Positions 5,905 through 58,844 of a stretch of DNA of 64,000 nucleotides are shown here, one piece after another. The notes under the pieces were generated by a model that was given only the letters and a program-made list of their open reading frames with translations, was not told the origin of the DNA and did no database searches. The position numbers and the translations under genes were made by a program. Origin of the DNA: Actinomycetota bacterium (GTDB lineage: Bacteria > Actinomycetota > Thermoleophilia > Miltoncostaeales > Miltoncostaeaceae); assembly GCA_046095485.1 (NCBI GenBank), contig JBJTJN010000059.1, positions 6,565 through 70,564 of the forward strand, given 5' to 3'. Every line of letters starts with the position of its first letter. The first letter of the stretch is position 1.

Positions 5905-6543
5905 TTATCCGCCGGTCCGGACGTCACGCAGCAGAACGCGGCGCGCCTGCAGCCCATCGGGGCCCACCTCGATGATGCCCACGGCGGATGCCCGCTCGTC
6001 ATCGGTCATTCCCGCCCGAAAGCGCATGTACGCACGGCCTTTGACACCGGTGCGCTCACTCGCGTCGCGCTCCTCGGGTATGTAGACGGCGCCCGGCGAG
6101 AACACCCGCGTTCCCCTCACCTGGGTGTCCACCGGCATGTGTAGGTGGCCGTGCACGATGAGGTCCACGGGGCCCAGCCGACGGCGCATGTGACGATGCA
6201 GCCCGAGCAGCACGACCTTGCGGCGCACGAGGCTCAGCCCCGCCGCCGGTATCTCGATGCCCCGCGTGCGGCGCCCGTGCACGAGGCCGATGCGCCGCCC
6301 GCGCACGCGCACCACCCGCTCGCGCGGGAGGTCGATGCCGGCCAGGAGGTCGTGATCGCCCTGCACGGCCACCACCGGCGCGATGCGCTCGAGGTCGTCG
6401 ATCACGCTGGTGCAGGTGAGGTCACCTGCGTGCAGGATGAGGTCGCAGCCCTCGAGGGCCGCGGGCACCTCGGGGGGCAGCGTGGGCAGCACCTCGCCCA
6501 CGTGCGTGTCGGCCACCACGCCGATGCGGATGGTGCCGCTCAG
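5905..6543 (-). CDS. YfcE/MJ0936-type metallophosphoesterase
   Basis: 3' part of ORF 5905..6954. Motifs: IRIGVVADTHVG, LILHAGDL, VAVQGDHD, LIVHGHLHMP. The first strand (RIGVV) lies upstream of the first in-frame GTG (6519). The start is therefore proposed at CTG 6543-6541, which overlaps the fabI stop (CTGA). Confidence 0.75.
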   Translation of the reverse strand: MSGTIRIGVVADTHVGEVLPTLPPEVPAALEGCDLILHAGDLTCTSVIDDLERIAPVVAVQGDHDLLAGIDLPRERVVRVRGRRIGLVHGRRTRGIEIPAAGLSLVRRKVVLLGLHRHMRRRLGPVDLIVHGHLHMPVDTQVRGTRVFSPGAVYIPEERDASERTGVKGRAYMRFRAGMTDDERASAVGIIEVGPDGLQARRVLLRDVRTGG

Positions 6544-7322
6544 ATGGCCGTCGCGTGGTAACCGGCGTCCACGTGCAGGGTCTCGCCGGTCACCGCCCGC
6601 GCGAGGTCCGAGCACAGGAAGAGCGCAGCGTCGGCCACCTCGTCGGCGTCGATGGGGCGGCGCAGGGGGGAGCGCTCGGTGGCGTTGTCCACCATGTCGC
6701 CGAACCCCGGGATGCCGCGGGCGGCGAGCGTGCGCACCGGGCCCGCCGACAGGGCGTTCACGCGCACGTTGTCGGGGCCCATGTCCCAGGCGAGGTAGCG
6801 CACGATGCTCTCGAGCGCCGACTTCGCGATGCCCATCACGTTGTAGCCCGGAACCGCGCGCTCGGCCGCCACGTAGCTCATGGTCACGATGGCACCGCCG
6901 CCGGCGTCGCGCATGTGCGGCTCCACGCGCTCGGCCAGCCGCTTGAGCGACCACGACGAGATATCCAGCGCAAGCTGGAAGCCATCATCCGAGACGTCCA
7001 TGAAGCGGCCGCCGAGGTCCTCCACCTTCCCGAAGGCCACGGCGTGCACGAGGATGTCAATGCCGCCCAGCGCCTCGGCCGTGCCTGCCACGGCGGCGTC
7101 GAGCTCGGCGTCATCGGTGACGTCGAGCGGCAGCACGGGCACCGGCCCGTTGGAGAGCTCACCGGCCAGCTTGCGCACGTCCTTCTCCACGCGCTCGCCC
7201 TGGAAGGTGAGCGCCACGCGCGCACCCTGCTCATCGAGCCGTCGCGCGATGGCCCACGCGATGCTGCGCTTGTTGGCCACGCCCACCACCAGCGCGCGCT
7301 TGCCCTCGACGATCCCGCTCAC
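6540..7322 (-). CDS. fabI: enoyl-[acyl-carrier-protein] reductase (NADH)
   Basis: ORF 6540..7322. MSGIVEGKRALVVGVANKRSIAWAIARRL, YNVMGIAKSALES (Tyr/Lys catalytic pair) and GETLHVDAGYH, typical of FabI. GAGGGA Shine-Dalgarno upstream of GTG 7322. Confidence 0.92.
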   Translation of the reverse strand: MSGIVEGKRALVVGVANKRSIAWAIARRLDEQGARVALTFQGERVEKDVRKLAGELSNGPVPVLPLDVTDDAELDAAVAGTAEALGGIDILVHAVAFGKVEDLGGRFMDVSDDGFQLALDISSWSLKRLAERVEPHMRDAGGGAIVTMSYVAAERAVPGYNVMGIAKSALESIVRYLAWDMGPDNVRVNALSAGPVRTLAARGIPGFGDMVDNATERSPLRRPIDADEVADAALFLCSDLARAVTGETLHVDAGYHATAI

Positions 7323-9720: not shown

Positions 9721-11010
9721 TCAGCGCGCGCCGATGTCGACGTAGTCGCGCTCGTCCGGGCCCACGTATACCTGGCGCGGACGCGAGATCTTCTGCTCCT
9801 TGTCGTTGATCATCTCCAGCCACTGCGCGACCCAGCCCGGGGCGCGGCCGATGGCGAACATGACCGTGAACATCTCGGACGGAATGCCGAGCGCCTCGTA
9901 GATGAGGCCGGAGTAGAAGTCGACGTTCGGGTAGAGCTTGCGCTGGATGAAGAACTCATCGTTGAGCGCGACCGTCTCGAGCTCGACGGCGATCTCGAGC
10001 AGCGGGTTGACGCCCGTCACCTCGAACACGTCGTCGCAGGCCTTCTTGATGATGGTGGCCCGCGGGTCGTAGTTCTTGTAGACGCGGTGGCCGAAGCCCA
10101 TGAGCAGCGCCTCGCGGTTCTTCACCTTCTCCACGAACTCGGGGACGTTGTCCTTGGAGCCGATCTCGCGCAGCATCACCAGCACGGCCTCGTTGGCGCC
10201 GCCGTGCAGCGGCCCGTAGAGGGCGGCGATGCCGGCAGCCACGGCCGAGTACGGGTCGACCTGCGACGAGCCCACGCTGCGCACCGTGGAGGTGCTGCAG
10301 TTCTGCTCGTGGTCTGCGTGGAGGATGAGCAGGATGTCCAGCGCGCGCACCAGGCGCGGGTCGGGGTCGTACTCGGCCCCGAAGAACATCTTGAGGATGT
10401 TGGTGGAGTAGTCGAGCGAGGGGTCCGGCGCCACGGGGTCCTTGCCCTGGTTGTGCCGGAAGGCCACGCCGCCGATGGTCGGCATCTTCGCGATGGTGTT
10501 GTAGAGCGCGTCCATGCGCTCGGGGTCGCTCTCGATCTCCTTGGCCTCGGGGTTGAGCGTGGAGAGCTGGCCGAAGCCAGCCTCGAGCACGCCCATGGGG
10601 TGGGCGTCCTTGCGGTAGGCCTTCACCGCGGCCTCCACCGAGGGGTCCACCGGCATGCGGTCGGCGATGTCCTTGGTGAACTGCGCGAGCTCCGCCTGGT
10701 TGGGCAGGTCGCCGTGGATCAGCAGCCACGCCACCTCGAGGAATGTGCTCTTCTCGGCCAGCTGCTCGATGGGGTAGCCGCGGTAGCGCAGCACGCCGTT
10801 GTCTCCATCGAGGTAGGTGATGGCGCTGCGGCACGACGCGGTGTTCATGAACGCCGGGTCGTAGGTCATCAGGCCGAAGTCGTCGTCCGAGACCTTGATG
10901 TTGCGAAGCTCGGTGGCACGGATCGTGCCGTCCGTGATCGCGAACTCGTAGGTCTGGCCTGTCCGGTTATCGGTGACGGTGAGGGTTCCGTCCTGGGCCT
11001 CTGTGGACAT
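9721..11010 (-). CDS. gltA: citrate synthase
   Basis: ORF 9721..11028. Start taken at ATG 11010 (MSTEAQDG...), preceded by GAAGGAAAGG. Conserved GYPIEQLAEKSTFLEVAWLLIHGDLP, LILHADHEQNCSTSTVR and GFGHRVYKNYDPRA (catalytic His/His/Asp regions). Confidence 0.95.
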   Translation of the reverse strand: MSTEAQDGTLTVTDNRTGQTYEFAITDGTIRATELRNIKVSDDDFGLMTYDPAFMNTASCRSAITYLDGDNGVLRYRGYPIEQLAEKSTFLEVAWLLIHGDLPNQAELAQFTKDIADRMPVDPSVEAAVKAYRKDAHPMGVLEAGFGQLSTLNPEAKEIESDPERMDALYNTIAKMPTIGGVAFRHNQGKDPVAPDPSLDYSTNILKMFFGAEYDPDPRLVRALDILLILHADHEQNCSTSTVRSVGSSQVDPYSAVAAGIAALYGPLHGGANEAVLVMLREIGSKDNVPEFVEKVKNREALLMGFGHRVYKNYDPRATIIKKACDDVFEVTGVNPLLEIAVELETVALNDEFFIQRKLYPNVDFYSGLIYEALGIPSEMFTVMFAIGRAPGWVAQWLEMINDKEQKISRPRQVYVGPDERDYVDIGAR

Positions 11011-35663: not shown

Positions 35664-35735
35664 AACCCCGGTGTCAGGCACTTAACCGAGGGTCACAGAA
35701 CTCGCGCGGGTTGGTTGGGTGCCTGACACCGGGGG
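35664..35735. repeat. hairpin/TIR element, type B, copy 1
   Basis: AACCCCGGTGTCAGGCACTTAACC ... GGTTGGGTGCCTGACACCGGGGG. The first 16 bp of the arms are perfectly complementary; extension to 22 bp needs two G.T pairs. 25-nt loop. It fills the gap from the stop of the lipoprotein gene (CTA 35736-35738) towards the helicase start. The first 26 nt are identical to 58756-58781. Confidence 0.8.
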
Positions 35736-52304: not shown

Positions 52305-53045
52305 TCAGTGGAATGCGCGGGCCAGCTTCTTGCGGTACTCGGGCACCAGGGGGTGACTGTCACCGAGCTCACGGAACTGACCGATGAGCATCTTGCGCAG
52401 GTCGTCCTTCAGCACCTTGTCGCCGGTGGTGGTGGCGGCATCCACCAGGCTGGCGAACGCCTGCTGCCAGTCCTCGCGCTCGAGTGCGGCGAGGCCGGCC
52501 TGGACGTCGGGCACGTCGCAGCCCATCAGCCTGATGCGGGCCCTGAGGCCGGCGGCGATGGGGTCGTGCTCGGCGGGCGCCAGCACCTCGTCGGCCTCCT
52601 CCAGTTCGCCGTCGTCGATCAGCAGATGCGCCAGCGCGATGCGGGCGTCGGTGCGCCCGGCGTCGCGGAAGATGGCCTCGCGCAGGCTGTCGGCATCGCC
52701 CTCGGCCACCAGCATGTCCACCTTGCTCGGCACCAGCTTGTCGAGGAAGGCCTCCATCTGCGCGGGCGCCACGAGCCCCACGAACTCCTCCACCACCTCG
52801 CCGTTGCGGAACGCCTTCACCGCCGGGATGCTCATCACCTGGAACATCTGCGCCAGCCCCGGGTTGGCATCGATGTCCACCTTGGCGAGCACCACGTCCC
52901 CACCGCGCCGCCCGATGGCGTCGTCGATGATGGGCCCCAGCTGCCGGCACGGCCCGCACCACTCGGCCCAGAAGTCGACGACCACCGGAACCTCGTGCGA
53001 CCGCTCGATCACATCCGCCTGGAAAGAACCCTCGCTCACGTCCAT
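52305..53045 (-). CDS. thioredoxin-domain protein with C-terminal TPR-like domain (YbbN/CnoX-like)
   Basis: ORF 52305..53126, with the start at ATG 53045 (TAGTCT 7 nt upstream). VVVDFWAEWCGPCRQL (intact CGPC), VMSIPAVKAF, then a helical Ala/Leu/Asp-rich C-terminal half. Confidence 0.85.
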   Translation of the reverse strand: MDVSEGSFQADVIERSHEVPVVVDFWAEWCGPCRQLGPIIDDAIGRRGGDVVLAKVDIDANPGLAQMFQVMSIPAVKAFRNGEVVEEFVGLVAPAQMEAFLDKLVPSKVDMLVAEGDADSLREAIFRDAGRTDARIALAHLLIDDGELEEADEVLAPAEHDPIAAGLRARIRLMGCDVPDVQAGLAALEREDWQQAFASLVDAATTTGDKVLKDDLRKMLIGQFRELGDSHPLVPEYRKKLARAFH

Positions 53046-53048
53046 GCG

Positions 53049-53188
53049 CGGGAGACTAGAGGGGCGGCTGGCCAACCGGCAGTCGGGCACGTCGCGAAAC
53101 GGTATGGCCATTTGCGGGGGCCGCAAATGGCGATCCCCGGCTCCGGTTGCCCGACTGCCGGTTGGCCAGCGACCCCTCTAGTCTCCCG
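53049..53188. promoter_or_regulatory. mirror-symmetric divergent promoter region (41-bp inverted arms plus a central 11-bp inverted repeat)
   Basis: Left arm 53049-53089 (CGGGAGACTAGAGGGGCGGCTGGCCAACCGGCAGTCGGGCA) against right arm 53148-53188, complementary at 39 of 41 positions. Central GCCATTTGCGG-GGG-CCGCAAATGGC at 53107-53131 is concentric with the arms. Both start codons lie 3 nt outside the arms. Confidence 0.8.
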
Positions 53189-53191
53189 GCC

Positions 53192-54886
<1,695 letters not shown>

Positions 54887-58757: not shown

Positions 58758-58844
58758 CCCCGGTGTCAGGCACTTAACCGAAGGGCCCGCTCCGGTGGGC
58801 CCTTCGCGTTTGGGGGCTCGGTAACGGCCCTGACCCCGGGGTTC
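58756..58844. repeat. hairpin/TIR element, type B, copy 2 (carries an internal terminator-like hairpin)
   Basis: AACCCCGGTGTCAGGCACTTAACCGA, identical to 35664-35689. It begins inside and directly after the acn stop codon TAA. The right end GGTAACGGCCCTGACCCCGGGGTTC is a degenerate inverted copy. The element fills the convergent gap up to the IMPase stop (58849). Confidence 0.75.
58780..58805 (+). terminator. terminator-like hairpin downstream of acnA
   Basis: GAAGGGCCC-gctccggt-GGGCCCTTC, followed by GCGTTTG. A perfect 9-bp stem. Confidence 0.5.

Follow-up and report, generated by a model that had tools for sequence, protein, structure and literature searches.

Correia elements of Neisseria (CREE or NEMIS) are intergenic elements of about 100-160 bp whose inverted ends enclose a conserved core; they can put a promoter at one end or at both and in this way drive adjacent genes. 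According to passages of PMC2649163, the CREE core binds the host protein IHF. REP and REPIN sequences, with their RAYT (Y1) transposases, form intergenic hairpins that often stand just after stop codons, persist vertically, and keep their pairing through matched changes. Template switching between inverted repeats, as in the Ripley model, E. coli quasipalindromes, and the promoter inverted-repeat expansions of yeast, yields homogenised arms, lengthening into promoters and inversion of the spacer; invertons are short segments found between inverted repeats in both orientations. Each of these has something in common with the element analysed here, which fills the spacer of a divergent gene pair, trx and ettA, in a 64,000-nt stretch of an actinobacterial contig (GenBank assembly GCA_046095485.1, contig JBJTJN010000059.1, positions 6,565 to 70,564; "the window" refers to this whole stretch). 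In its working the element is most like the Correia elements and REPINs, but it fails the defining tests of both, and its effect on promoters is best filed as inverted-repeat expansion by template switching. The trx-ettA spacer is probably a vertically inherited copy of a hairpin repeat whose outgrown arms mirrored the ettA promoter onto trx.

The window's own genome (G000) comprises 1.79 Mb in 129 contigs and has 71.7% G+C; the genomes compared are metagenome-assembled genomes (MAGs) throughout. The features of the locus, in window coordinates, are as follows.

52305..53045, minus strand: trx, a Thioredoxin plus TPR_20 gene, CnoX/YbbN-like by its domain matches; its ATG is the CAT at 53043-53045
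53043..53089: left inverted arm; its inner 22 nt are perfect with respect to the right arm, and its outer part holds the trx -10
53053..53058, minus strand: predicted trx -10, TAGTCT, followed by 7 nt and the ATG; it mirrors the hexamer on the ettA side
53089..53148, plus strand: B-type conserved asymmetric 60-nt core, ACGTCGCGAAACGGTATGGCCATTTGCGGGGGCCGCAAATGGCGATCCCCGGCTCCGGTT, delimited by cross-species comparison
53107..53131: central perfect hairpin, GCCATTTGCGG-GGG-CCGCAAATGGC, with 11-bp stems and a GGG loop; invariant across the repeat family
53148..53194: right inverted arm; its outer part holds the ettA -10
53179..53184, plus strand: predicted ettA -10, TAGTCT, followed by 7 nt and the ATG; relatives have the homologous CTCTAGGAT / CTCTATGAT
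53192..54886, plus strand: ettA-like ABC-F gene with ABC_tran_Xtn, by domain matches; its N-terminus is common to all relatives

The two arms are 47 nt each and 91% complementary, differing at 4 positions, and within this the complementarity of the terminal CAT and ATG is trivial because both genes begin with ATG. In the 41-nt frame 53049-53089 / 53148-53188, 39 of 41 positions are complementary, the mismatches lying at 53065/53172 and 53066/53171, and the arm sequences part ways right at the trx and ettA start codons. On both sides TAGTCT is followed by exactly 7 nt and then the start codon, ATG at 53192 or CAT at 53045-53043. The trx product has WCGPC at residue ~30, and its start codon is conserved in 14 relatives. 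The initial annotation had described this mirror-image spacer, and its arms, hexamers and central repeat were all confirmed at the coordinates it gave; it had also noted similar N-terminal extensions of the two open reading frames, and their upstream in-frame translations are indeed near-identical. Folded as single-stranded DNA, the 152-nt palindrome reaches -74.3 kcal/mol, compared with -34.1 +/- 2.9 for shuffled sequences (z = -13.7), and it is one of only two inverted repeats longer than 45 nt in the window.

The centre of the spacer is a member of a repeat family. Its central ~70 nt (the core was put at 60-72 nt) occur in about 10 copies in G000, namely on contigs C28 (two), C34, C55, C82, C91, C110 and C119, and more weakly on C105 and C45. 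Each copy forms a long nested hairpin whose core is built around CATTTGCGG-NNN-CCGCAAATG; the outer arms vary between copies and pair within each copy. The initial annotation had allowed that many genomic copies would turn the palindrome into a dispersed repeat, and in G000 this is so for the centre and not for the outer arms. The neighbours of the copies are unrelated (ftsH|folP, folK|DUF gene, USP|sigma factor, upstream of leuA, downstream of serA, and others) and stand in tandem, convergent or divergent arrangement, some copies lying directly after stop codons; no functional theme is shared among the flanking genes.

In a search of one genome per prokaryotic species (185,579 genomes), about 65 of the 83 matches to the exact hairpin pattern came from Thermoleophilia / Miltoncostaeales MAGs; those carrying it are mostly labelled Thermoleophilia, Miltoncostaeales or Miltoncostaeaceae, some being mislabelled, and have 5-10 copies each. 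Within the genus, a covariance model built on the 97-nt repeat unit matched 25 of 28 genomes, 1-18 times each (the trx-ettA copy scoring 85 bits over 53071-53166). It found nothing in G012 and G021, complete genomes in which the trx-ettA spacer is also free of the element, and across 87 sampled Thermoleophilia genera it matched in one genus only, the 86 others being negative. Forward-strand scores (~105 bits) are far above reverse-strand scores (~33 bits), and the core is thus strongly asymmetric despite its palindromic centre. An Rfam scan of six loci returned only sub-threshold microRNA-precursor matches, a generic response to a long hairpin. In plasmid, phage and viral collections no related sequence was found (no BLAST match, and matches in viral contigs cover only the 21-nt hairpin), and a phage or plasmid origin was rejected on that ground. 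The family is genus-specific and hitherto undescribed, and its host genus consists of small freshwater and estuarine actinobacteria (Miltoncostaeales-type Thermoleophilia).

The divergent trx-ettA pair is conserved in the genus, and its spacer takes the following forms.

146 nt: G000, G019, G001, G020, G018 and SFB649D; one element
149 nt: G005; one element
about 200 nt: G013; one element
308-343 nt: G008, G014 and DEBay; two elements
52 nt: G021; none
410 nt: G012; none
1023 nt: G003, G006, G011 and G016; an extra gene between the pair

In the last group (L023-L026), the ~1-kb segment between trx and ettA carries an extra gene starting MCTN(L/F)K. All copies in trx-ettA spacers have the B-type core subtype, which is found at this locus only and tracks the species, pointing to an old, vertically inherited insertion.

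Among the eight single-copy species, the mean pairwise difference is 3.8% in the 60-nt core and 30% in each arm, while four-fold degenerate sites in the same species differ by 30% (ettA) and 39% (trx). Because the core diverges so little and the arms as much as four-fold sites, strong purifying selection must act on the core, the arms evolving at the neutral rate; gene conversion from A-type copies cannot explain the conservation of the core because the B-specific bases are retained. The initial annotation had asked whether the arms are co-conserved in relatives, and the answer is divided: their sequence drifts neutrally, yet their complementarity is kept. In ungapped B-type sequences the two arms are paired at 94.8% of positions; the figure is 66.6% (maximum 71.4) for shuffled columns and 29-52% with the partner slid. 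Double-sided changes occur in 20 of 26 arm pairs, and there are no G-T wobble pairs among the arm cells. The pairing registers of A- and B-type arms are offset by one column, and for this reason RNAalifold, run on an alignment that combined the two types, found no stem but the central one.

Selection on the core was in keeping with the proposal of the initial annotation that one dimeric regulator, with the central 11-3-11 palindrome as its operator, co-controls trx and ettA, the symmetry being selected for that. The 11-bp half-sites with 3-nt spacing would suit a dimeric helix-turn-helix protein, and the core lies at about -45 to -102 of both predicted promoters, a typical activator or repressor position. 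However, an operator would be expected in promoter regions, at a consistent position relative to the genes it regulates, and the same core with the same asymmetric flanks is found behind stop codons, in the spacers of convergent genes and between housekeeping genes in tandem, and works in either orientation. Moreover, conservation spans 60 asymmetric nt and thus extends beyond the half-sites, the outer arms that make the symmetry drift neutrally, and G021 and G012 have the same gene pair without the element. The central repeat is the core of a dispersed family, and a locus-specific operator is very unlikely. Our best guess is that the core serves, family-wide rather than at this locus only, as a sequence-specific recognition module for a protein, or as a hairpin that is recognised, at the DNA level.

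The many double-sided changes in the arms could also be read as selection on RNA pairing, with the element acting as a long-hairpin terminator, a processing or stability element, or a small RNA. The strand asymmetry of the core speaks for this, and most of the other copies occupy the 3' regions of genes, so that they would be transcribed and the core may there have a role as RNA. The trx-ettA copy, in contrast, precedes two divergent starts that look leaderless, and it is probably not transcribed; this argues for a role at the DNA level. Orientation relative to the neighbouring genes also flips freely between species, and RNA pairing is not suggested by arms devoid of G-T wobbles. No intrinsic terminator or other terminator-like site was found in 52700-53500 (there is no U-tract, and the flanks of the core have no T runs), nor was an Rfam family or a conserved internal promoter, and near-perfect helices of 30-100 bp would be expected to be cut by RNase III and hardly to serve as stable functional RNAs. 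An RNA element is therefore an unlikely explanation.

TANNNT stands at N6-N8 upstream of both trx and ettA in all relatives, and no Shine-Dalgarno sequence precedes either gene in G000. Genome-wide in G000, TANNNT is sharply concentrated 6-9 nt upstream of crude gene starts (68, 29, 19 and 21 of 789, with 3 or fewer at other spacings), a leaderless architecture that matches the one known from mycobacteria (PMC3898074). A scan with the sigma-70 -35/-10 consensus gave no match, as expected for actinobacterial promoters that have only a -10. Judged by these sequence marks, TANNNT 6-9 nt upstream and no Shine-Dalgarno, the predicted promoter is of the leaderless actinobacterial type on both sides. 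Both genes are thus very probably leaderless, with -10 hexamers in the outer ends of the arms and start sites placed by prediction, much as the initial annotation had supposed. Where the extra gene intervenes, trx has a canonical AGGAGG Shine-Dalgarno, and hence a leader.

In element-bearing genomes where the arm stops short, the ettA -10 reads CTCTAGGAT; in G003 and G016, with no adjoining element, it reads CTCTATGAT, a clear homologue, and in G021 and G012 it is TACCCT and TACCAT, respectively. The trx -10 at N6 is TATCGT, TATCTT or TAAGGT in G021, G005, G008 and G014. Against this background the ends of the arms fall into a graded series. In G005 and G013 the arms reach neither -10 box; they include CCTCTAG in G019 and G001, in which trx reads TAGGCT; in G020, G018 and SFB649D they include the whole hexamer, TAGGCT on both sides; and in G000 they continue through the discriminator to the ATGs, giving TAGTCT-CCCG(G/C)(C/G)C-ATG on both sides. 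The TATCGT-type -10 of trx was replaced only in the clade where the arm crossed it. By sequence comparison, then, ettA provided the promoter whose mirror image replaced the -10 of trx. Growth to a coding boundary is not peculiar to this spacer, as in the C110 copy of G000 the palindrome extends from one gene's TGA up to the TCA of its convergent neighbour. There the whole 254-nt spacer (L004:1400-1671) is a three-tier nested palindrome that includes both stop codons. The folK|DUF spacers of the family-free genomes G021 and G012 have no palindrome, are short, and keep a native TCTAGGAT-type -10; arms must therefore arrive with the element or after it.

A mobile palindrome that delivered both promoters, the other suggestion of the initial annotation, came closer than the operator, but had the direction wrong: relatives without an element in the spacer have the CTCTA(G/T)GAT -10 of ettA. 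In its full form this explanation would have an active transposon of the MITE type, a miniature transposable element with inverted repeats, insert in the spacer and bring both outward promoters, as Correia elements can, parts of PMC2649163 describing how a CREE can make a promoter at either or both of its ends. Some subfamilies have indeed multiplied recently, a ~205-nt composite being present 4-5 times in G000, often at contig ends, and the arms, absent from empty sites, arrive with the element. Nevertheless, CTCTA(G/T)GAT-N7/8-ATG precedes ettA in G003 and G016 with no element adjacent, and lies outside the arm in G005, G008, G013 and G014; the restriction of the B-type core to a single locus, tracking species, is likewise unlike an active transposon, and no relative was found in the plasmid, phage or viral collections. 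The terminal repeats expected of a MITE are not conserved, arms differing by ~30-45% between orthologous copies and being unrelated between loci, with only the recent composites sharing arms. The trx-ettA, folK|DUF and C110 copies show no visible direct repeat at their ends, where the empty sites are too diverged to give exact junctions. Correia elements, for their part, have conserved terminal repeats, a TA duplication and hundreds of copies, and form a promoter from the element end plus the target, whereas the trx-ettA family has arms that vary with the locus, no visible duplication and ~10 copies, the promoter being native to ettA and copied by arm growth. Delivery of both promoters by a transposon is very improbable.

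The core has been inverted. Relative to the genes it is in plus orientation in G000, G018, SFB649D, G019 and G001 and in minus orientation in G020, G005 and G013. G020 has the arm type of G018, SFB649D and G000, with the core and inner-arm polymorphisms flipped: two inner-arm polymorphisms (..CCGGCAG.. vs ..CCGGTGG..) switched sides along with the core, which places the exchange point within the outer arm. Three spacer types recur in independent metagenome contigs, one of them flipped with respect to its closest arm-type relative; L103 and L138 have the core in plus orientation and L065 in minus, with the same arm type in all three. When copies were grouped by their unique flanks, both orientations were present at most of 11 shared loci, the flips being seen between species only and orientation being unreliable for long-arm composites and contig-end copies. 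Invertons are marked by both orientations within one population and by a site-specific recombinase; the inversions observed in the trx-ettA family are differences between species. Unlike in invertons, the 60-nt segment has no promoter inside it, the arms have no conserved recombinase site, and no invertase lies adjacent. A site-specific recombinase is an unlikely source of the inversions because the arms are too variable.

These results are best joined by growth of the arms. Each copy would consist of a ~60-nt asymmetric core under purifying selection and long arms that drift neutrally yet are kept complementary. The arms would be homogenised, lengthened outward and sometimes exchanged, an exchange flipping the core, and the probable cause is replication template switching or gene conversion between the arms; growth would halt where coding sequence starts. 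At trx-ettA the arm would have crossed the pre-existing leaderless promoter of ettA (CTCTAGGAT-N7-ATG) and copied it, mirrored, onto the trx side, replacing the -10 that trx had, the symmetry extending in G000 to both start codons. The two genes would then most likely be transcribed leaderless from near-identical core promoters, with the repeat core upstream of both and presumably untranscribed. Template switching is proposed because homogenised drifting arms, their lengthening and spacer inversion are exactly its predicted products; the portions of PMC8604942, PMC13100816 and PMC5941160 that bear on it describe arms being homogenised and expanded and the spacer inverted. The described cases involve short repeats, from a few to ~20 nt, whereas arms here are 26-47 nt, and >100 nt in composites; here, too, the arms surround a selected core and belong to a repeat family. 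In the literature retrieved, we found no case of a leaderless -10 duplicated onto a divergent gene by inverted-repeat growth.

Several points weigh against this account. RecA-type gene conversion would give products similar to those of template switching, and the two are inseparable here. Strong purifying selection on the core shows a function for which growth of the arms does not account. Only one assembly shows the outermost symmetry of G000. In the trx tree G000 falls with G020, SFB649D and G018 (support 0.994), in the ettA tree with G014, G019 and G001 (0.997); such discordance implies that the lineage is recombinant, with a breakpoint at or near the spacer, or that the contig is an assembly mosaic, perhaps joined in the shared core. 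Spacers with one and with two elements fit neither tree cleanly, and the order of events in the arm series is thus a reconstruction. Finally, MAG assemblies fold back at these palindromes (L055, L097, L105 and the end of G000 C91).

The last points raise the question of whether the symmetry peculiar to G000, from the discriminators to the ATGs, is an artefact of metagenome assembly or a strain mosaic at the palindrome. Contigs fold back at the same element in other MAGs and in G000 C91, the trees are discordant for G000, and no second assembly with the G000 spacer type was found. On the other hand, the element lies inside a contig of 77 kb whose genes to the left and to the right of it differ, and its arms, which differ at 4 positions and diverge at the start codons, are unlike an exact fold-back. 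Three related spacer types are reproduced in independent assemblies, and the core claim, a family member with a mirrored -10, holds for G018, G020 and SFB649D as well. An artefact is accordingly extremely unlikely. In the fold-back contigs themselves, G000 C91:~10250-10404 included, the same gene 5' end is inverted on both sides; in L105 the two sides have different synonymous codons, indicating a strain chimera. Many repeat copies lie at contig ends.

A further reading of the core is possible but doubtful. Rather than selfish DNA, the core might be a domesticated, genus-specific cis-element, recognised by a protein, perhaps as an extruded hairpin or cruciform, and at trx-ettA coupling two mirror leaderless promoters to one input (a binder or supercoiling); inversion and arm growth would then change which of the adjacent genes gain promoters of this kind. 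That a recognition protein or function exists is suggested by the family failing the defining tests of REPINs as well as those of classical MITEs.

The REPIN unit is an imperfect palindrome of 20-40 nt, usually arranged in inverted doublets and present in tens to hundreds of copies; the trx-ettA family has a 60-nt core and 1-18 model matches per genome, and each element is one long hairpin with an asymmetric 60-nt head rather than a doublet of short REPs. The only PF01797 (Y1) match in G000, on C23 (47 bits), has inverted copies of CCCCGGTGTCAGGCACTTAACC on its flanks, which belong to another family. A RAYT link to the CATTTGCGG-core family was considered and rejected because this single Y1 transposase goes with the CCCCGGTGTCAGGCACTTAACC repeat; a search for an associated enzyme, limited to PF01797, found none for the CATTTGCGG-core family. 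The CCCCGGTGTCAGGCACTTAACC repeats thus make up a second system, separate from the first. Its Y1 (RAYT-type) gene, at C23:~1100-1800, has a low G+C content at third codon positions and is bracketed by inverted CCCCGGTGTCAGGCACTTAACC 22-mers, and there are ~35 further copies, most of them in inverted doublets that directly follow stop codons, an arrangement classic for REP/REPIN-RAYT systems. Two CCCCGGTGTCAGGCACTTAACC sites fall in the window, at 35670-35730 and 58762-58779. In two other MAGs of the genus (L054, L077), the CATTTGCGG-core element is exactly centred in a REP doublet (arms GGTGTCAGGCACGTAACCCAAGGGG...), so that the families are nested. Those cases prompted the idea that the core inserts into the loops of pre-existing hairpins; as a general rule it was rejected because family-free spacers lack a palindrome and orthologous arms diverge in place.

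The trx-ettA spacer is a case from nature, in bacteria, of a promoter rewritten step by step by a growing palindrome, in which a leaderless -10 was probably duplicated, mirrored, onto a divergent neighbour; evolution of promoters by inverted-repeat expansion has been argued experimentally in yeast, according to parts of PMC13100816. The repeat family itself presents an unusual mix of a selected asymmetric core, neutral self-complementary arms, recurrent inversion, and spacers filled from coding boundary to coding boundary. In practical terms, the elements break or fold back metagenome assemblies of an abundant estuarine and freshwater lineage.

Two further hairpin loci were noted. In Pseudoxanthomonas sp. 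10H (L117, NZ_JBGNUG010000001.1:~6190-6950), five CATTTGCGG-NNN-CCGCAAATG hairpins occur within 750 nt in alternating orientation; the units share other sequence among themselves, and this is an unrelated local array, a chance match to the pattern. In the ftsH|folP spacer of G019 (L123), a different long hairpin, with arms GCAGCGGCCCGGGGGTTTTCCC.. and a core containing GTCGCGAATCGG and GGGGCTTCGCCCC, takes the place where G000 and G041 carry the CATTTGCGG-core element; the same spacers thus seem to be occupied repeatedly by hairpin elements.

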